Of a stretch of DNA of 64,000 nucleotides, positions 4,165 through 10,781 are shown piece by piece; the first letter of the stretch is position 1, and every line of letters begins with the position of its first letter. The position numbers and the translations under genes were made by a program. The notes below the pieces were generated by a model. It did not search any database and was not told the DNA's origin. It saw nothing but the letters and a program-made list of their open reading frames with translations. The DNA is taken from NCBI GenBank assembly GCA_963702495.1, contig CAVPDA010000006.1:36832-100831 (forward strand), in the 5' to 3' direction. The stretch is from an uncultured beta proteobacterium (GTDB lineage: Bacteria > Pseudomonadota > Gammaproteobacteria > Burkholderiales > Rhodocyclaceae).

Positions 4165-4626
4165 GGAACGCTGGCCGCTTGGTTCGGGATCATTGAGGGT
4201 GTGCAGGCGCGAATGCTGCTGCGTCGATCAGGAGGCCGCGATGGCTTGGCGGCTGCGACCGACTGCGCGCGCCGACGGGGCGCGGATTGCGGGGGCGCAG
4301 GAATCCACCCCCCGCATGCGCCGCGCTCATGATGCCAAGATGCGGCCCGGCATGCAACTCATTGGGTGGCGAGAGCCGCAGAACCACGGTGCGAAGGACA
4401 CAGCCGAGCGGGCGAGTTTGGGGCAGCCGATATGCTGCGTCAACAGCGTATTGCCGTGCTGCCATGATCGAGAAATCGGTTCCCGGAGCCAACGATTGCA
4501 GGGATACGCACGGATCGATCGGGGATCGAGAGGTCCGACGGTTTCAGCCGAGGACGATGTGACGGGAGCCGGAAGCAATTCGAAGAGAACCGGTGCGGTC
4601 GCGCCGATGCCTGCGCGCTCGGTCCG

Positions 4627-6156
4627 TCACAGACGGTAGGCGAGCTTTAGACGTGCCTGCACCTGGCGCGCCTTCCGGAACGATTCCTTCAGCACCTGGC
4701 GATCCATGTCATTGAGCTTGTCCGGATCGATGCGGTTGGCGGCCTCCGGCGGCGTAACCGGATTCATCTGCTGGCGCAGGCGCAGCATCTGGATGAAGTA
4801 GAACGCCTCGGTGACGGCGATCAGGCCGTCGCCGGCGAGATGGATGTGCGGGGCCGCGCCGCGCAGGCGCTCGGCGGTGTTGGTGTGGGCGACACCGTGG
4901 GCCAGGCTGAACACCCGCGCCGCATCCACGAACGGGCGCGAGCCGTACATCTTGAGATTGATGGTGTGGGGAAATGCCTTGTCATCGAACACGAAATCCC
5001 GGATCACGCCCAGCGGCGGCTGGCAGGTGAGCGCGTTCTCCGCCATGTAGCGCAGGAAAAGGGTGTTCTCCGGTACCACGCCGAAGAGCCATTCGCGCAA
5101 CTGCTGCGCCAGCGATGCCTCGCCATAGATGGCGCGGAAGTCGAAGAAGATGGTGGCATTGAGCAAGGCCTGGGGCAGCGGCCTCGTGATCCAGTCGCCG
5201 AAACGCTCCTTCCACTCGGCCAGGCTGAGGCACCACTGCGGATTGCCCGCCATGATGTTTCCCCGGCACAGGGGGAAGCCGCAGGCGTCGAGTCCCAGAT
5301 TGATGGCCCGGGCGAAGGGCAACAGCCCGCGCCGGATCTCCTCCGTCGAACCTCCTTCGGGAGGCACGAAGATGATGCCGTTGTCTTGGTCAGTGCTGAA
5401 CGTCTGCTCGAAGCGGCCCTCGGACCCCAGCGCGATCCAGCACATCGGCACCTCGGGTATGGTATGGCGATCGAGTTCCAGCTCGATGACGCGGATGGTG
5501 AGCAGATCGTTGAGGGTGGAGACGAGCTGAATCAGAGTCTCGGCGCGGGTTCCCTGCCGCAGCATGCGCCCGGCCAGCAGCCGGATCTGGCGCGCCGCCT
5601 GGGCCAGCGTCTCGGTGTCGCGTGCCACCCGGATATCGCCGCTCAGCTCCCCCAGGCCGGTGCGCGGCAGGCTGAACAGGTCGTGCTGCGACACCACGCC
5701 GAGCAGCCTCCCTTCCGCTACCACCAGCAGGTGCCCCAAACCGCTGCGCGCCATGGTGAGCGCCGCGTCATGGGCGGCAACCTCCGGCCCCAGCACGACG
5801 AATCGCTGCGTCATCACCCGCTCCACGGCCTGGTCGAGGTCATAGTCGGGCAGCGCCGCCTGCTGCACGAAGTCGGCAAGCGTGAAGATGCCCAGCGGCG
5901 CGCCGCTGCGCGGGTCGGCCACGACGATGGCGCCGACGCGCTGGCGGTTGATGTGCGCCAGCACCTGGCGCACCGGGAGTCCGGGGGGGCAGGTGACGGG
6001 GGTGCGCGCCAGAAACGCCGACAGCGGGCTGTAGATCGAACGGTGCTCTTCATCCGATACCGCGGCACCCGGCCCTTGCGCCGCTTCGTCGAGCGGCGGA
6101 TCTTCAGCGTGCAGATTCAAGTCCGTCTTCGCCCTATCAGTATTCGACCCGGGCAT
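4627..6156 (-). CDS. Tandem-CBS + DUF294 putative nucleotidyltransferase (+ DUF294_C)
   Basis: 509 aa. Two CBS repeats (VGAIVVAD...GIFTLADF; GHLLVVAEGRLLGVVSQHDLF). Pol-beta-type NTase motif LGSEGRFEQTFSTDQDNGIIF. C-terminal helical DUF294_C-like region. It overlaps the upstream exonuclease gene by 20 nt. Confidence 0.85.
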   Translation of the reverse strand: MPGSNTDRAKTDLNLHAEDPPLDEAAQGPGAAVSDEEHRSIYSPLSAFLARTPVTCPPGLPVRQVLAHINRQRVGAIVVADPRSGAPLGIFTLADFVQQAALPDYDLDQAVERVMTQRFVVLGPEVAAHDAALTMARSGLGHLLVVAEGRLLGVVSQHDLFSLPRTGLGELSGDIRVARDTETLAQAARQIRLLAGRMLRQGTRAETLIQLVSTLNDLLTIRVIELELDRHTIPEVPMCWIALGSEGRFEQTFSTDQDNGIIFVPPEGGSTEEIRRGLLPFARAINLGLDACGFPLCRGNIMAGNPQWCLSLAEWKERFGDWITRPLPQALLNATIFFDFRAIYGEASLAQQLREWLFGVVPENTLFLRYMAENALTCQPPLGVIRDFVFDDKAFPHTINLKMYGSRPFVDAARVFSLAHGVAHTNTAERLRGAAPHIHLAGDGLIAVTEAFYFIQMLRLRQQMNPVTPPEAANRIDPDKLNDMDRQVLKESFRKARQVQARLKLAYRL

Positions 6157-8365
6157 AGAGCGTGCGCTCCGCTGCCCGGCGCGCCTCGCCCAGAGTACGG
6201 ATGCCCTGCGCCGCCAACAGCGGAATCATGCGCAAAAACGCTTCGCCAGTCACCGTGGCATCGCCCAGGGCGGTGTGGCGTGCCACCACCATGATGCCCA
6301 GCCGCTCCGCGATCGCCTCCAGCGTGTGCGAGCCCTGATGCGGATGCAGCACCTGAGACAGCAGCAGCGTATCGAGCACCGGCTGGGTGAAGCGGACGCC
6401 GGTGCAGGCCTCCTTCATCTGCAGGAAACGCATGTCGAACGCGGCGTTGTGGCCGACGAGCACCGTATCCTCGCAGAATTCGTGGAACCGCGGCAGCACC
6501 TTGTCGATGGTGGGCTGGCCCTTGAGCAGTTCGTGGGTGAGGCCGTGGATATTGGTGGATACCCACGAGGTGGGGCGCTGCGGATCGACCAATTGCTGAT
6601 AGCTCTCGTTGCGCAGCAGGCGGCTGTTCACAATGCGCAGCGCGCCGATGGAAACGATCTCGTCGCCGGCCGAAGGCTCCAGGCCGGTGGTCTCGGTGTC
6701 GAACACGGTATAGGTGAGTTCGGTGAGCAGGCGTTCGTCGAGTTCGGTGGTCTGGCCCGGCTGCTGAAACAGGTCGAAATCGTAGAACTCCGGGCGGTTG
6801 TCGCCGTAGCGGATCGGCGCGGCGGCGACCGGCTGCAGCGGGGTGGCGAGCGGCAGCAGGAGCCGGAAGCAGGCTCGGTGGCGCGCCTTTTCCGTGACGA
6901 AGACGACTTCCGCCCCGTGGCGCTCGGCGACGTCGCGCAGGGTGAGCGGGCTGTCCTCGCCGCCGGCGTGCATCGGGTCCATCTCCCAAGAGTACAGCGT
7001 CTGGGAGGAGAGCGCCGCGCCGGACCAGATCAGGTCCAGCCGCGCCAGTCTGCCTTCCCGGGACAGGCTGAAGCGCACTTCGCGCACGTCGTGTTCATCC
7101 TGCATGCGGCTGGCGAAGTAGGTCAGCGCCTGGATCAGGGTGTAGCTGTCGGCCTTGATCCAGATCGAGTTGTCGAGATTCTCCACCTTGGTCGGCAGGC
7201 CCAGTCGGCTCTCGATGCGACGCCGCGCCGCAGCCACCACGTCCACCCCGAGCATCTCTTCGAGAGGCCAGCGCGTCTTGAGCGAATCGGCATAGTCGGC
7301 CATGGTGCGGTCCAGCGCGCTGCTCAGACTGCTTGTCTCTTCGCTGATGATGCGCACGAACCGGTCACGCTGCTGCGGCTCGCAGTCCGGGTAGTCGAGC
7401 AGGGTCTCCACGGCGGCACGGATGTTTCCCAGCGCGGCGCGGCTGCCTTCGGTGAGCGACTGCAGCAGCACGTCGCGCCTGCTGTCGCGCTCGAAGCTGC
7501 GGGTGATGTTCTCCATGGTCAGGACGAAGCCGCTGATCGTCGCGTAGTCGGCGCGCCGCAGCGGCGCCGGCTTGTCGCCCGGATCGCGAGCATGCGCATC
7601 GGGGTCGCGAGCCGGCGGCAAACTGGTCGTCAGCACCGGCGCCAACTGCAGCCGGATCAGCTGGCCGGCGCGGGTGGTGGTGACGACCTGCGCGTTCAGA
7701 TCGGCGTCGTTCTGCTCCAGGCGGGTGCGCACATGGTCCAGGGCGTGCGTCAGCAGGCTGCGATCGATGACGGCAAAGATCGATCGTCCGAGACCGATCA
7801 GCGGCGCCGTCGTTTCCCCCGGCCCGTTCGCGGCGGCCCCCAGCGTCTGCCGCGCGCGCTCGTTGTAGAGCAGGATGCGGCCATCGCTGTTGCATACCAG
7901 CACCCCCTGGGACAACTCGGACATCAGGGCCGCCAGCCGGTTTTTCTCCTCTTCCACCGACGCCCGGGCGCGGACCGCCTTCGCCTCCAGATCGCGCGCC
8001 AGCGTTTCGTGCTGCTGCGCAAAGCGGTTGACCGCTTCCGCGAGCAGCCGCATCTCCGCCGGTCCCGCAGCCTCGATGCGATGGCTGCGGTTGACGTTCA
8101 GCATGATGCGCAGCGCCTCCACCAGCCGCAGCGGCCCGCGCACATAGGCGTGATAGGCGCCGGCAAAGAGAATTCCGAACAGGCCGAGGCCGAGCACGCC
8201 CAGTCCCGCCAGCAGTTCCAGGCGCGGCGCGATCATCGCGGCGAGGCTGTGCCGGTTGTCGGGCCCCACGTCGTAATAGAAGGCATAGCCCGCCACCAGG
8301 ACGAAACCCGTCAGCAGAGCGAGAAAGGCGCTCAGCGCGAGGATGAATTTATACTTGTCCGCCAC
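6137..8365 (-). CDS. Membrane sensor: 2 TM, HAMP, PAS, degenerate histidine-kinase-like module, then a DnaQ/DEDDh 3'-5' exonuclease
   Basis: C-terminal exonuclease motifs: TVFDTETTGLEP (ExoI), LVGHNAAFDMRFL (ExoII), HTALGDATVTGEAFL (ExoIII, DEDDh). N-terminal TM helices, HAMP (AEAVNRFAQQHETL) and PAS (LSQGVLVCNSDGRILLYNERA). The kinase-like segment has no phospho-acceptor His (LTEGSRAALGNIRAAVETLLD). The ORF stays open to 8575, but that extension overlaps the intergenic repeat, so the GTG at 8363-8365 (VADKYKFILALSAF, start of TM1) is my preferred start. The start remains uncertain. Confidence 0.85.
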   Translation of the reverse strand: MADKYKFILALSAFLALLTGFVLVAGYAFYYDVGPDNRHSLAAMIAPRLELLAGLGVLGLGLFGILFAGAYHAYVRGPLRLVEALRIMLNVNRSHRIEAAGPAEMRLLAEAVNRFAQQHETLARDLEAKAVRARASVEEEKNRLAALMSELSQGVLVCNSDGRILLYNERARQTLGAAANGPGETTAPLIGLGRSIFAVIDRSLLTHALDHVRTRLEQNDADLNAQVVTTTRAGQLIRLQLAPVLTTSLPPARDPDAHARDPGDKPAPLRRADYATISGFVLTMENITRSFERDSRRDVLLQSLTEGSRAALGNIRAAVETLLDYPDCEPQQRDRFVRIISEETSSLSSALDRTMADYADSLKTRWPLEEMLGVDVVAAARRRIESRLGLPTKVENLDNSIWIKADSYTLIQALTYFASRMQDEHDVREVRFSLSREGRLARLDLIWSGAALSSQTLYSWEMDPMHAGGEDSPLTLRDVAERHGAEVVFVTEKARHRACFRLLLPLATPLQPVAAAPIRYGDNRPEFYDFDLFQQPGQTTELDERLLTELTYTVFDTETTGLEPSAGDEIVSIGALRIVNSRLLRNESYQQLVDPQRPTSWVSTNIHGLTHELLKGQPTIDKVLPRFHEFCEDTVLVGHNAAFDMRFLQMKEACTGVRFTQPVLDTLLLSQVLHPHQGSHTLEAIAERLGIMVVARHTALGDATVTGEAFLRMIPLLAAQGIRTLGEARRAAERTLYARVEY

Positions 8366-8455
8366 GTCGTCGATCGGCAGCCTGCGCCGCTGTCTTGCCG
8401 GGAACCGGGAAGTTACCGGACTGCGGGCCGGTATACAAGAACCTGCGTCGCCCGA

Positions 8456-8625
8456 GCCGGAACCATGGAGGCTGTCGCGTTGCCTGCGGCCGGAAAACCT
8501 GCCATGTACGAACAAGGGGAGATCCCCTTGTCTATCCCCCCAGCGGGAACGAGGGGGCGCAGTCCCCCCTTGCAAATCCCGAAAAAGGCGTTGGCCCGGC
8601 CCAGGTCTTCGCCAGAACGGTCACG
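8456..8625 (+). repeat. Intergenic repeat, copy 1 (core 8488-8541 with a conserved GGGGAGA-CCCC hairpin)
   Basis: Core ggccggaaaacctgccatgtacgaacaaggggagatccccttgtctatcccccc is about 87% identical to 37868-37921 in the same orientation. The flanks gccggaacca... and ...tcttcgccagaa.cg are also shared. Copy 1 carries an extra ~40-nt internal duplication or hairpin (agggggcgcagtccccct). Confidence 0.6.
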
Positions 8626-8799
8626 TCTGCACCATCAGGAGACGTGGGTCGCGTCGTGCCCAACCGTCGGTTCCGGCCGTGCCGCCGATGCTGATAAGGC
8701 TCATCTATGGCATCATAACCAGAACTCCGGCGTTGCGTATGATCTTGCGCCGGAGTCTGCGGGATTCGTCGTCGTCCATCACCAGGGAGGGGGATCGAG

Positions 8800-9111
8800 A
8801 TGTCATCTGCCGTGTATGAGCGCATTCGCAACAACCCGAAGTTCAACGAACTGGTCATCAAACGCAGCCGGCTGGCGTGGAGCCTGACGGCGATCGTGCT
8901 GGGTATCTACTTCACTTTCGTCATGGTGGTCGCCTTCAATGGCAAGCTGCTCGCGACGCCGCTCGCGGCCGGACTGGTCACCACCATCGCCTGGCCGATC
9001 GGCGCCGGCATGATCCTGCTGTTCTGGCTCATGACCTTCCTCTACATCCGTCGTGCCAACAGCGAGTTCGATGATCTCACCAAGGAAATCGTCAAGGAGG
9101 CCATGAAATGA
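8800..9111 (+). CDS. yjcH: DUF485 inner-membrane protein (YjcH family), partner of ActP
   Basis: 103 aa with two TM helices. Motif [24 protein letters not shown]...[14 protein letters not shown] gggaggggg lies upstream. The stop overlaps the actP start (ATGA). Confidence 0.9.
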
Positions 9112-10781
9112 GCCGCGCCCTCATTCGACTCGCCTTTGCCGGCGTCGCCGCTTGCGCGGCCGGGCTCGCCCTGGCCGCCCCGGCCGTGGAACAGGCGCAG
9201 AAGCAGCCCCTCAACGTTCATGCCATCGTGATGTTCTTCGTGTTCGTCATGGCGACCCTGGGCATCACCTACTGGGCAGCCAAGCGCACCAAGACGGCGA
9301 GCGACTACTACGCCGCCGGCGGCGGCATCACCGGCACCCAGAACGGTCTGGCAATCGCCGGCGACTACATGTCGGCGGCCACCCTGCTCGGCCTCACCAG
9401 CCTGGTGTACTCCAAGGGCTACGACGGTTTCATCTACTGCATCTGCTTCTACGTCGGCTGGCCGGTGATCCTGTTCATGATGGCGGAGCGGCTGCGCAAC
9501 TTGGGCAAATTCACCTTCGCCGACATCACCTCCTTCCGCCTCGACCAGCGCCAAGTGCGCACCATGGCCGCGATCGGCTCGCTCACGGTGGTCATCTTCT
9601 ACCTCATCGCCCAGATGGTGGGCGCCGGCCAGTTGATCAAGCTGCTGTTCGGCCTCGAGTACTGGATAGCGGTGGTGATCGTCGGCGTGCTGATGGTGAT
9701 CTACGTGACCTTCGGCGGCATGATCGCCACCACCTGGGTGCAGATCATCAAGGCGGTGCTGCTGCTATCGGGCGGCACGGTGACGATGCTGATCGCGTTG
9801 TCGCACTTCGGCTTCAGCTTCGAGACCCTCGTCGCCAAGGCAGTATCGCTGCACAAGGATGGCCCCAAGATCATGGCTCCCGGCACCCTGCTGGCAGACC
9901 CGGTATCGGCGGTGTCACTGTCCCTCGGCCTGATGTTCGGCACGGCCGGCCTGCCCCACATCCTGATGCGCTTCTTCACCGTACCCAACGCCAAGGAGGC
10001 GCGCAAGAGCGTGGTCGTCGCCACCGGCTGCGTCGGCTTCTTCTTCTGCGTGGTGAGCCTGATGGGGCTGGCAGCCATCGTCATCGTCGGCCAGAACCCG
10101 GCCTACTTCGAGGGCGGCAACATCGCCGGCAAGATGATCGGCGGCGGCAACATGCCTGCCATGCATCTGGCACACGCCGTGGGGGGAAATCTCCTGCTGG
10201 GATTCCTGGCCGCAGTCGCCTTCGCCACCATCCTGGCCGTGGTCTCGGGACTGGCGCTGGCCGGCGCCTCCGCCATCTCCCACGACATCTTTGCCAACGT
10301 GATCAAGAAGGGCAAGGTGGCAGAGGGCGAGGAGGTGCGCGTGTCCAAGATTTCCTCTCTCGGCCTCGGCGTGCTGGCGGTGCTGCTGGGCATCGTGTTC
10401 GAGAAGCAGAACATCGCCTTCCTGGTCGGCCTCACCTTCGGCATCGCCGCCTCGTGCAACTTCCCGGTGCTGATCCTCTCCATGTACTGGAAGGGACTTA
10501 CTACCCGCGGCGCGGTATGGGGCGGCATCGCCGGCCTGGTGGCGGCGGTGGCGATCGTCGTGCTCTCGAAGGCGGTGTGGGTCACGGTACTGGGCAACAA
10601 GGACCCGATCTTCCCCTACGAGCAGCCTGCCATCTTCTCCATGCCGCTGGCGTTCTTTGTCGCCTGGCTGGTGTCCACCCTGGATACCAGCGCCCGCGCC
10701 GCGAAGGAGAAGGAAGCCTTCGAAGACCAGTACGTGCGTGCCCAGACGGGCTTCGGGGCCGCCGGCGCCGCAGCCCACTAA
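9108..10781 (+). CDS. actP: Cation/acetate symporter ActP (SSS family)
   Basis: 557-aa polytopic protein. The N-terminal region (signal-like leader, [31 protein letters not shown]) and overall layout are typical of ActP. It is coupled to yjcH. Confidence 0.95.

Follow-up and report, generated by a model that had tools for sequence, protein, structure and literature searches.

We describe here a two-gene cassette on the minus strand of positions 4627-8575 in a 64,000-nucleotide stretch of DNA (the window), which corresponds to C6:36832-100831 of a 5.1-Mb assembly whose nearest relatives are Candidatus Competibacteraceae. Both are real genes, the first coding for a membrane-anchored sensor protein that ends in a DEDDh 3'-5' exonuclease domain (the sensor-exonuclease) and the second for a protein with two CBS domains and a DUF294 nucleotidyltransferase, and both point away from the neighbouring yjcH-actP genes. 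We propose that the cassette serves the uptake of short-chain monocarboxylates of the acetate type, through opposed enzymes that would add and remove a nucleotide as the output of a two-component system, and not DNA replication; we consider the chances of this reading to be about even. The sensor-fused form of the exonuclease supplies a wiring diagram for such a pathway, comprising a real kinase, a bare receiver, a paralogous dead kinase and an intact hydrolase, together with exonuclease-DUF294 fusions.

Architecture of the sensor-exonuclease

The open reading frame (ORF) of the sensor-exonuclease, 6137..8575(-), opens at a TTG at 8575 and would encode 812 amino acids (aa). Homologues are 712-793 aa long, a database protein with 98% identity has 742 aa and matches a GTG at 8365, and the 70 extra codons of the longer ORF overlie a REP-like dispersed repeat; the gene is therefore taken as 6137-8365(-), encoding 742 aa. 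Its parts, all on the minus strand, are as follows.

6137..8365, minus strand: sensor-exonuclease gene, with transmembrane (TM) hairpin, HAMP, PAS, dead DHp/CA and DEDDh parts (ORF, Pfam, AlphaFold, Foldseek)
8156..8365, minus strand: residues 1-70, two TM helices (about 6-29 and 46-70) with a loop of about 15 residues (AlphaFold helices 2-32 and 35-90)
7916..8155, minus strand: residues 71-150, HAMP-like linker and long signalling helix (weak Pfam HAMP match, 0.0027; helices 35-90 and 103-149)
7505..7915, minus strand: residues 151-287, PAS domain (PAS_8 and PAS_7 below cut-off; PAS fold in the AlphaFold model)
7277..7504, minus strand: residues 288-363, DHp-like helical hairpin (AlphaFold helices 288-324 and 330-363)
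6848..7276, minus strand: residues 364-506, CA-like alpha/beta domain (modelled 369-506) without N, G1 and G2 boxes (fold matches)
6734..6847, minus strand: residues 507-544, low-confidence or disordered linker ending in RPEFYDFDLF (pLDDT, the AlphaFold confidence score, <50 at 511-527)
6140..6733, minus strand: residues 545-742, DEDDh 3'-5' exonuclease domain (Pfam RNase_T)

Pfam recognises only the C-terminal RNase_T domain (E = 1.9e-30, 107 bits against a cut-off of 24), plus sub-threshold PAS and HAMP matches, and the remaining assignments come from an AlphaFold model of the monomer (85 diverse homologues as input; pLDDT 87) and from Foldseek comparison with the PDB. The anatomy given in a preliminary description of this DNA, a dead kinase joined to an intact DEDDh domain and followed by a CBS-DUF294 protein, agrees with Pfam, AlphaFold, Foldseek and column conservation alike. 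There is no periplasmic sensor domain, and the TM hairpin is the most divergent part of the protein among the three paralogues in this genome, at 29-47% identity. Within the PAS domain N168 and G191 are invariant and C158 is nearly so, and in the linker motif RPEFYDFDLF residues R524, P525, Y528, D529 and F530 are nearly invariant. Cys158 (window 7892-7894) lies in the first PAS strand (GVxVCN), beside the invariant N168 and G191, and its near-invariance hints at a conserved ligand or redox site.

The exonuclease domain has every appearance of a working enzyme. The five DEDDh catalytic residues D556, E558, D644, H697 and D702 (motifs DTETTG, HNAAFD and HTALGD) are invariant in 85 diverse family members, showing that the nuclease is under selection as an enzyme. 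The Thermotoga maritima PolC exonuclease (2p1j) matches the domain at 8.8e-33. Foldseek matches for this part are Pol III epsilon, PolC, DinG-exo and ExoX, and the model superposes on Pol III epsilon at 1.9-2.0 A. DEDDh 3'-5' exonuclease activity is thus predicted from the intact motifs and fold. The domain falls short of the DnaQ equivalog level (TIGR01406, 108 bits against 222.7; NF004316, 103.7 against 196), and separate DnaQ-like genes are present elsewhere in the genome, on contigs C3 and C18.

A dead kinase core related to a CrbS-like kinase

Between the PAS domain and the linker, residues ~275-515 give no match to Pfam HisKA or HATPase_c even at E = 10, leaving ~245 residues blank, so that the kinase-like fold here is one shown by structure prediction. 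The AlphaFold model has the DHp/CA fold of a histidine kinase, and the Foldseek matches for the kinase-like part are WalK, VicK (4i5s), YF1 (4gcz), ThkA, HK853, DivL (4q20) and NifL. The position of the phospho-acceptor histidine is occupied by Glu306, and none of 127 family members has histidine in this column (E in 66, D in 11, Q in 9, A in 8, T in 6 and R in 6); R309, at His+3, is nearly invariant. When the sequence is read directly, the N, G1 and G2 ATP boxes are not recognisable, and ALTYFASRM, IWSGAAL and SPLTLRDV stand in their place.

The likely ancestry of this core was seen within the genome itself. Searched against a six-frame translation of its own genome, the dead core (residues 285-510) has, besides its paralogues, one significant match, to the DHp-CA region of a CrbS-like kinase (E = 8e-7; next best 0.4), and the DHp part alone gives the same best match (1e-6, with the next at 0.016). 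The pseudo-DHp and the kinase DHp are 38% identical without gaps (SLTEGSRAALGNIRAAVETLLDYPDCE and SVTHELRTPLTSIRAFSEILLDSPDME), with the kinase histidine opposite Glu306. To judge from these matches, the dead core is a paralogue of the CrbS-like kinase's own core. The pseudo-DHp retains the lower part of helix 1, the part of the DHp that touches the regulator in solved kinase-regulator complexes (HK853-RR468).

Two deletion variants in other genomes, L087:5450-6862(-) and L086:2913-4403(-), have a TM-HAMP-PAS-exonuclease arrangement of 470-496 aa that lacks the DHp-CA core, and neither has a receiver or a CrbS-like kinase gene nearby. The DHp-CA core is missing from short soluble exonucleases too, which are likewise without receiver or CrbS-like kinase neighbours. 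Scanning family members of odd length (P0265 and others) for other output domains found none, and P0265 is probably a frameshifted ORF.

The DUF294 nucleotidyltransferase

The second gene encodes 509 aa, with the following parts.

4627..6156, minus strand: CBS pair and DUF294 nucleotidyltransferase gene, 509 aa (Pfam; AlphaFold pLDDT 90)
5662..6030, minus strand: residues 43-165, tandem CBS pair (Pfam CBS, two stretches)
5173..5589, minus strand: residues 190-328, pol-beta-type nucleotidyltransferase core (PF03445)
4636..5061, minus strand: residues 366-507, DUF294_C helical domain of the KNTase_C/GlnD-GlnE clan (PF10335)

All of the Pfam matches are far above cut-off (two CBS domains, 4.2e-17; DUF294, PF03445, 1.7e-44; DUF294_C, PF10335, 2.9e-39), and the catalytic motif G244-S245-x10-D256-x-D258 (GSEGRFEQTFSTDQD), of the G-x11-D-x-D type, is invariant in 43 members. 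No Pfam match to a cNMP_binding domain was found in the 509-aa protein, whereas canonical COG2905 proteins of ~620-650 aa carry one at the N-terminus; residues 1-37 are disordered in the AlphaFold model, which is of the monomer. The CBS pair matches AMP-bound CBS pairs and AcuB in Foldseek, and is likely an adenine-nucleotide sensor.

Sequence and profile searches of the PDB with this protein return CBS domains only, and a fold search was needed for the catalytic body. Its best non-CBS Foldseek match is the N-domain of the Escherichia coli glutamine-synthetase adenylyltransferase GlnE (1v4a, E = 8.1e-8 over 432 columns), followed by the Legionella Rab-AMPylase DrrA (6yx5_B, 1.7e-7) and the GlnE C-domain (3k7d, 2.5e-7), and the model accordingly shows a nucleotidyltransferase plus helical substrate-binding fold of the GlnE/GlnD/DrrA kind. 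The Pfam DUF294 model also picks a 918-aa ORF in the genome (3.7e-6), which is presumably GlnD. The grouping of DUF294_C with the C-domains of GlnD and GlnE was made by Anantharaman et al. (PMC3710099). Because the catalytic body is nearest to the GlnE/DrrA fold, nucleotidylylation of a protein is at least as likely an activity as the making of a free signal.

Three cassettes, one kinase and one receiver

The genome contains three sensor-exonuclease genes and three DUF294 genes, always paired, together with one AcsA, one CrbS-like kinase of the SLC5/STAC type and one orthologue of a 122-aa stand-alone receiver. The kinase has HisKA and HATPase_c domains but, unlike Pseudomonas CrbS, no receiver domain; the stand-alone receiver consists of a Response_reg domain alone, with the DD, D53, T83 and K105 residues. 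Two of the cassettes (B and C) lie in the acs locus on contig C10, where C10:37653-56968 carries, on one strand, acs, the CrbS-like kinase, the first cassette (exonuclease C, DUF294 C, DUF4212 and an SSS symporter), ~1.2 kb with a TPR-gene region, the receiver, and the second cassette (exonuclease B, DUF294 B, DUF4212 and an SSS symporter). It looks as if a duplicate of the cassette had been inserted into the canonical operon, separating the kinase from the receiver.

Each cassette adjoins its own Na+/monocarboxylate symporter, which is ActP beside the window copy (A) and a two-subunit symporter of the VC_2705 type beside B and C. Copies B and C are 67% identical in the exonuclease and 70% in DUF294, and A is 56-59% identical to B or C in both proteins; since the identities of the two proteins co-vary, the pair duplicates as a unit, each copy staying with one transporter. 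The kinase gene is at C10:51854-54607, on another contig than the window copy, and none lies beside the window copy. The window copy is thus an orphan: it has been relocated beside yjcH-actP, apart from the one kinase and one receiver that the genome encodes, and because of this separation the association with kinase and receiver is invisible from the window.

Gene neighbourhoods of the sensor-exonuclease family

The sensor-exonuclease family is large, with >3,600 close homologues and at least 150 full-length clusters at 50% identity. In an even sampling of Pseudomonadota, 23 of 401 genomes (11 of 234 genera) have the sensor module; every ORF that carries it is ~705-780 aa long, and 22 of these 23 genomes also have a strong DUF294 match. 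Neighbours were surveyed in the 80 best-matching loci, being called by tblastn with the proteins of this genome. These loci come from Competibacteraceae, Rhodocyclaceae (Dechloromonas, Accumulibacter, Zoogloea, Azonexus and Thauera) and many Burkholderiales, as well as Thiothrix, Xanthobacter, Desulfobacterales and some Chloroflexota bins.

Immediately upstream of the exonuclease, on the same strand, 68 of the 74 loci with enough flank have the stand-alone receiver; 58/70 have the CrbS-like kinase upstream of the receiver, and in 15 loci acs immediately precedes the kinase. DUF294 directly follows the exonuclease in 29/70 (with nine more convergent) and is within 10 kb in 37/45, and an SSS transporter is within 10 kb in 27/45. 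The tightest partner of the long exonuclease is therefore the kinase-receiver pair, above DUF294.

In seven loci from Dechloromonas/Azonexus and their relatives (L011, L014, L015, L017, L019, L021 and L029) two tandem DUF294 genes follow the exonuclease. Full kinase-receiver-exonuclease loci at 39-49% identity were also seen in Chloroflexota-labelled bins (L031, L048, L050 and L055) and in Desulfobacterales (L081 and L084). Such loci outside the Pseudomonadota suggest either that the genes have spread horizontally between bacteria of wastewater and sediment or that the contigs were mis-binned.

Pairing of DUF294 with DEDDh exonucleases

The association was also followed from the DUF294 side, using one locus per genome from 40 genomes in 35 Pseudomonadota families; a strong DUF294 match occurs in about a third of the sampled Pseudomonadota genomes (counted from the 401-genome table). 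Of the 40 loci, 30 have a DEDDh exonuclease within 400 nucleotides (nt) of DUF294 and 33 have one within 3.2 kb; an SSS transporter is found within 8 kb in 23/40, and acs in 4/40. The linked exonucleases belong to three subfamilies, the short ones being PRK09146 or PRK09145 and the long form falling below both cut-offs, and a maximum-likelihood tree places them in three separate clades. The tree is unrooted and housekeeping DnaQ-like genes fall between the clades, leaving it undecided whether the DUF294-linked exonucleases are monophyletic.

Two loci encode direct fusions, L112:6822-8966(+) of 714 aa and L119:6660-8975(+) of 771 aa, in which an N-terminal RNase_T domain is followed by two CBS domains, DUF294 and DUF294_C. 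Both fusion genes are divergent from a CrbS-like kinase gene, and their exonuclease domains cluster with the long and mid forms (support 99/91). The pairing is about as well supported as gene context allows. The preliminary description had supposed that nucleotidyltransferase and exonuclease belong together and are tied to acetate-type uptake rather than DNA replication, and had called for a survey of synteny. The 30/40 loci, the three exonuclease subfamilies and the two fusions bear out the first supposition, and the SSS and acs neighbours and the three cassettes, each by a transporter, bear out the second; in the surveys the pairing is general, with SSS monocarboxylate transporters within 8-10 kb in ~60% of loci.

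The same description pointed to a comparable cluster near actP in Pseudomonas aeruginosa, and PA3232-PA3235 are indeed one co-regulated cluster, induced ~16-fold on propionate (PMC9765439). This example is one instance of the general DUF294-exonuclease rule. In P. putida, PP_0354 and PP_0353 are direct targets of ErdR (CrbR) and among the genes most strongly dependent on it; propionate growth is reduced by deletion of PP_0354 or PP_0353 and pyruvate growth by deletion of PP_0353, and modification of a protein by PP_0354 was proposed by its authors (PMC9927547; 10.64898/2026.09.07.749794). Transposon fitness data from Shewanella amazonensis and P. stutzeri, for the use of lactate and D-alanine, show cofitness between an RNase T/COG2905 gene and the DUF4212-SSS transporter next to it (10.1101/072470). 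From the transposon fitness and genetic results it follows that the module acts positively on transporter function, and that the substrates are short monocarboxylates generally and not acetate alone.

Gene layout and the divergent intergenic region

All of the elements listed in the preliminary description are present where it placed them. Its 20-nt overlap of the DUF294 gene with the stop of the exonuclease gene stands if the ATG at 6156 is the start; a GGAG lies 10 nt 5' of this ATG, and the sole other DUF294 start is a TTG at 6120. The divergence from yjcH-actP is likewise confirmed by the genes on the other side of the intergenic region.

8366..8799, no strand: divergent intergenic region of 434 nt, with a REP-like palindromic repeat at ~8483-8540
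8800..9111, plus strand: yjcH-like DUF485 membrane protein (PF04341, 1e-29)
9108..10781, plus strand: cation/acetate symporter, ActP subfamily of the SSS family (PF00474, 3.3e-107)

The symporter passes the NCBIfam subfamily models NF009135 (908.9 bits against a cut-off of 850) and NF006903 (895.8 against 750), and falls short of the strict ActP equivalog TIGR02711 (778.5 against 1099). The hairpin in the intergenic region was considered as a locus-specific leader and ruled out, being a genome-wide dispersed REP-like repeat: its core, ACAAGGGGAGATCCCCTTGT, at 8483-8540, lies inside the over-extended part of the ORF (8366-8575), and ~20 copies with 88-97% identity are found on at least 11 contigs and both strands. 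No sigma-70 consensus was found, and a sigma-70 and terminator scan of 4300-9200 gave nothing useful. A single GACGTGGGTC palindrome (GACnnnnGTC) at 8641-8650 is at chance level. The CrbR 'ACTU' motif is present at Pflu5625; taking the inverted repeat consensus from the same source (about TACGACnnnnGTC; PMC5715377), we count 59 occurrences of the core pattern in the window, where 50.6 would be expected.

A model for cassette function and its alternatives

We suggest that the dead core is most likely a docking site for the receiver or phospho-receiver, by analogy with DivL and DivK~P, because the receiver has no output domain of its own and the exonuclease is encoded by the next gene, because the core is paralogous to that of the kinase, and because variants without the DHp-CA region have neither receiver nor kinase nearby. 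If the dead core does dock the receiver, the exonuclease would be the enzymatic output of a two-component pathway. In such a pathway the transporter-like kinase would sense substrate or flux and phosphorylate the stand-alone receiver, which would dock on the dead DHp and, together with PAS/HAMP input, switch the exonuclease. In parallel, the CBS pair would read adenylate status and switch the nucleotidyltransferase. The two enzymes would work against each other on a single nucleotidyl group in phosphodiester linkage, the transferase placing a nucleoside monophosphate (NMP) on a hydroxyl and the exonuclease hydrolysing it off as 5'-NMP, and this would set how active or how strongly expressed the adjacent transporter is, and possibly Acs as well. 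The window copy would be served in trans by the single kinase and single receiver of the genome.

The target hydroxyl is most likely a protein side chain in this model, the alternatives being an RNA 3' end or a free nucleotide, and release of 5'-NMP from a protein would have the same bond polarity as removal of a 3'-terminal nucleotide. With one cassette beside each transporter and the TM hairpins diverged, the relation of cassette to transporter appears to be paralogue-specific and probably physical rather than one through a diffusible signal. The preliminary description had pictured a make-and-break pair for a nucleotide or oligonucleotide signal; of this, we find support for the pairing and for the link to acetate-type uptake, but the free signal is unsupported and modification of a protein is favoured by the GlnE/DrrA fold. 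The most specific form of our proposal is a kinase-receiver-dead-kinase circuit in which the DEDDh domain acts as a protein de-nucleotidylylase, erasing adenosine or uridine monophosphate (AMP or UMP) written by DUF294 on the transporter or Acs, with the dock as the only target of the receiver; we put this forward tentatively, as possible though not probable.

Several points weigh against the docking and protein-modification model. The evidence for receiver docking consists of gene order and paralogy, and for all members nucleotidyl transfer by DUF294 and the substrate of the exonuclease are predictions from sequence. We know of no DEDDh enzyme that takes a nucleotide off a protein, and for this reason explanations based on a free nucleotide or an RNA 3' end remain live. 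The window copy has neither kinase nor receiver adjoining it, and in Candidatus Competibacter phosphatis an orthologous actP-divergent sensor-exonuclease, L005:12182-14515(+), is followed by tex, with no DUF294, so that DUF294 adjacency is not obligatory for the orphan copy. The 80 surveyed loci are the best matches to the query and are thus biased to Rhodocyclales, Burkholderiales and Competibacteraceae, with neighbours called by tblastn and not from curated annotation. The phenotypes of the P. putida deletions are mild, growth on 20 mM acetate being unaffected (PMC9927547; 10.64898/2026.09.07.749794).

One alternative, unlikely as we think it, is that the transferase makes a free nucleotide or short (cyclic) oligonucleotide messenger, the level of which reports acetate supply, and the exonuclease degrades it, as Orn does with pGpG. 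DEDDh enzymes such as oligoribonuclease do clear dinucleotides, and a messenger would account for sensory domains on both enzymes and for a pol-beta nucleotidyltransferase being conserved next to, and in places fused to, a 3'-5' exonuclease. However, the DUF294 body resembles the protein AMPylases GlnE and DrrA most closely in fold, rather than cyclases or CD-NTases; the loci share no conserved candidate for a receptor or effector; and three paralogous pairs, each by its own transporter, are ill-suited to a diffusible common signal.

An RNA 3'-end switch is likewise unlikely. Here the transferase would add untemplated nucleotides to a specific RNA (the transporter mRNA, a small RNA or a tRNA) and the exonuclease would trim them, thereby controlling transporter expression; RNase T and the CCA-adding enzyme are a known case of such antagonism, and RNase_T is the best Pfam family of the domain. 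The cofitness with the DUF4212-SSS transporter, together with the speculation by Price et al. that the RNase T/COG2905 gene is needed for expression of the transporter (10.1101/072470), also fits an RNA target. The structural matches point elsewhere, the exonuclease being most like DNA-polymerase proofreading domains (PolC 2p1j and Pol III epsilon) and the DUF294 fold matching GlnE/DrrA rather than CCA or poly(A) polymerases. Neither a membrane anchor nor paralogue-specific pairing is needed for an RNA target, and a conserved RNA element was not found, the intergenic hairpin being the REP-like repeat.

The main rival to receiver docking is that the dead core heterodimerises with or titrates the CrbS-like kinase and so modulates phosphotransfer, leaving the exonuclease as a secondary passenger. 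The DHp is a dimerisation helix pair, the pseudo-DHp is 38% identical to that of the kinase, and the two genes are neighbours in 58/70 loci. Nevertheless, the receiver gene sits between kinase and exonuclease and is the tighter neighbour (68/74), the genome has three paralogues against one kinase, and the five DEDDh residues, invariant in 85 members, show the enzyme to be under selection; we regard this explanation as improbable.

We rate as very improbable that the protein works in DNA metabolism, as an alternative exonuclease for proofreading or repair, or against phages, in either case under environmental control. In favour of such a role, databases label family members 'DNA polymerase III subunit epsilon', the nearest solved structures are the PolC and Pol III epsilon exonuclease domains, and a PADLOC CRISPR-associated DEDDh model matches at 2.9e-39. 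Against it, the protein is membrane-anchored and below every NCBIfam DnaQ equivalog cut-off (TIGR01406, as above) in a genome with separate DnaQ-like genes, and PADLOC matches the generic DEDDh domain only and DUF294 not at all. The conserved neighbourhood, moreover, is made up of acs, SSS transporters, DUF294 and a kinase of the nutrient type, and no gene for replication, repair, CRISPR or defence belongs to it.

If the docking and de-nucleotidylylation model is correct, a two-component pathway would for the first time be seen to have an output of nuclease fold, and a DEDD-family enzyme to erase protein nucleotidylylation; an exonuclease fold that strips nucleotides from proteins, or a two-component pathway that ends in a nuclease, would be a new principle either way. 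In Pseudomonas the DUF294-exonuclease pair ranks among the operons that depend most strongly on CrbS/R. The family is also concentrated in acetate-storing wastewater bacteria (Competibacter, Accumulibacter, Dechloromonas, Zoogloea and Thiothrix), in which control of acetate uptake defines both ecology and process performance.

Comparison with known systems

The nearest known system is that of Pseudomonas, where PP_0354/PP_0353 (P. putida KT2440), PA3233/PA3232 (P. aeruginosa) and Pflu5625 with its neighbour (P. fluorescens) are adjacent members of the same two enzyme families, a cNMP-CBS-DUF294 protein and an RNase T-like exonuclease, and are tied, as here, to actP/yjcH, acs and a CrbS-type SLC5/STAC kinase. 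The Pseudomonas exonuclease is short and soluble, belongs to another DEDDh subfamily (PRK09146/PRK09145) and is encoded downstream of DUF294, whereas the exonuclease described here precedes DUF294 and is a membrane protein with HAMP and PAS domains and a dead kinase core; the DUF294 protein here, at 509 aa against about 620-650 aa, is without the cNMP-binding domain. In Pseudomonas the DNA-binding regulator CrbR/ErdR (CrbS/R being the same as MxtR/ErdR) acts on the transcription of the pair, while the family-wide placement of the sensor-exonuclease after a bare receiver suggests direct post-translational control.

The dead core invites comparison with DivL and DivK of Caulobacter crescentus. 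DivL is also shaped like a histidine kinase and does not use a phospho-acceptor histidine, keeps the DHp/CA fold and has a genetic tie to a stand-alone receiver, and its structure (4q20) is among the Foldseek matches. It retains an ATP-binding CA domain, has tyrosine at the histidine site and signals to CckA; the sensor-exonuclease has a CA domain without ATP boxes, mostly glutamate at the histidine site and a fused exonuclease as its output, and would bind the receiver by analogy.

For the enzyme pair, the closest parallels are GlnE (adenylyltransferase, ATase), GlnD (uridylyltransferase and uridylyl-removing enzyme, UTase/UR) and DrrA with SidD. These share with DUF294 the nucleotidyltransferase plus KNTase_C-type helical fold and the G-x11-D-x-D motif, and share with the cassette both regulation by a small-molecule sensor, here the CBS pairs, and a paired phosphodiester hydrolase. 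The known erasers are a second nucleotidyltransferase domain (GlnE), an HD domain (GlnD) and the PP2C-like SidD, never a DEDDh exonuclease. RNase T and the CCA-adding enzyme do combine a DEDDh exonuclease and a pol-beta nucleotidyltransferase in opposition on the same 3' end, but their genes are unlinked and without sensor fusions, and the DUF294 fold is unlike that of CCA enzymes. AcuA/AcuB/AcuC of Bacillus subtilis, divergent from acsA, are a modifying and de-modifying system beside acetate-activation genes, and AcuB is a CBS-domain adenine-nucleotide sensor, AcuB structures being some of the best matches that the CBS pair of the cassette has; the chemistry of the Acu system is lysine acetylation and deacetylation of Acs, with catalytic domains that are not homologous to those of the cassette.

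The literature that we searched, on DUF294, exonuclease and acetate, on Accumulibacter and actP, and on HAMP, PAS and histidine kinase, yielded no description of the fused dead-kinase form. The paired module itself was known already from PP_0353/PP_0354 and PA3232/PA3233, and what is new is the sensor-fused variant with a dead kinase core and the wiring model that it suggests.

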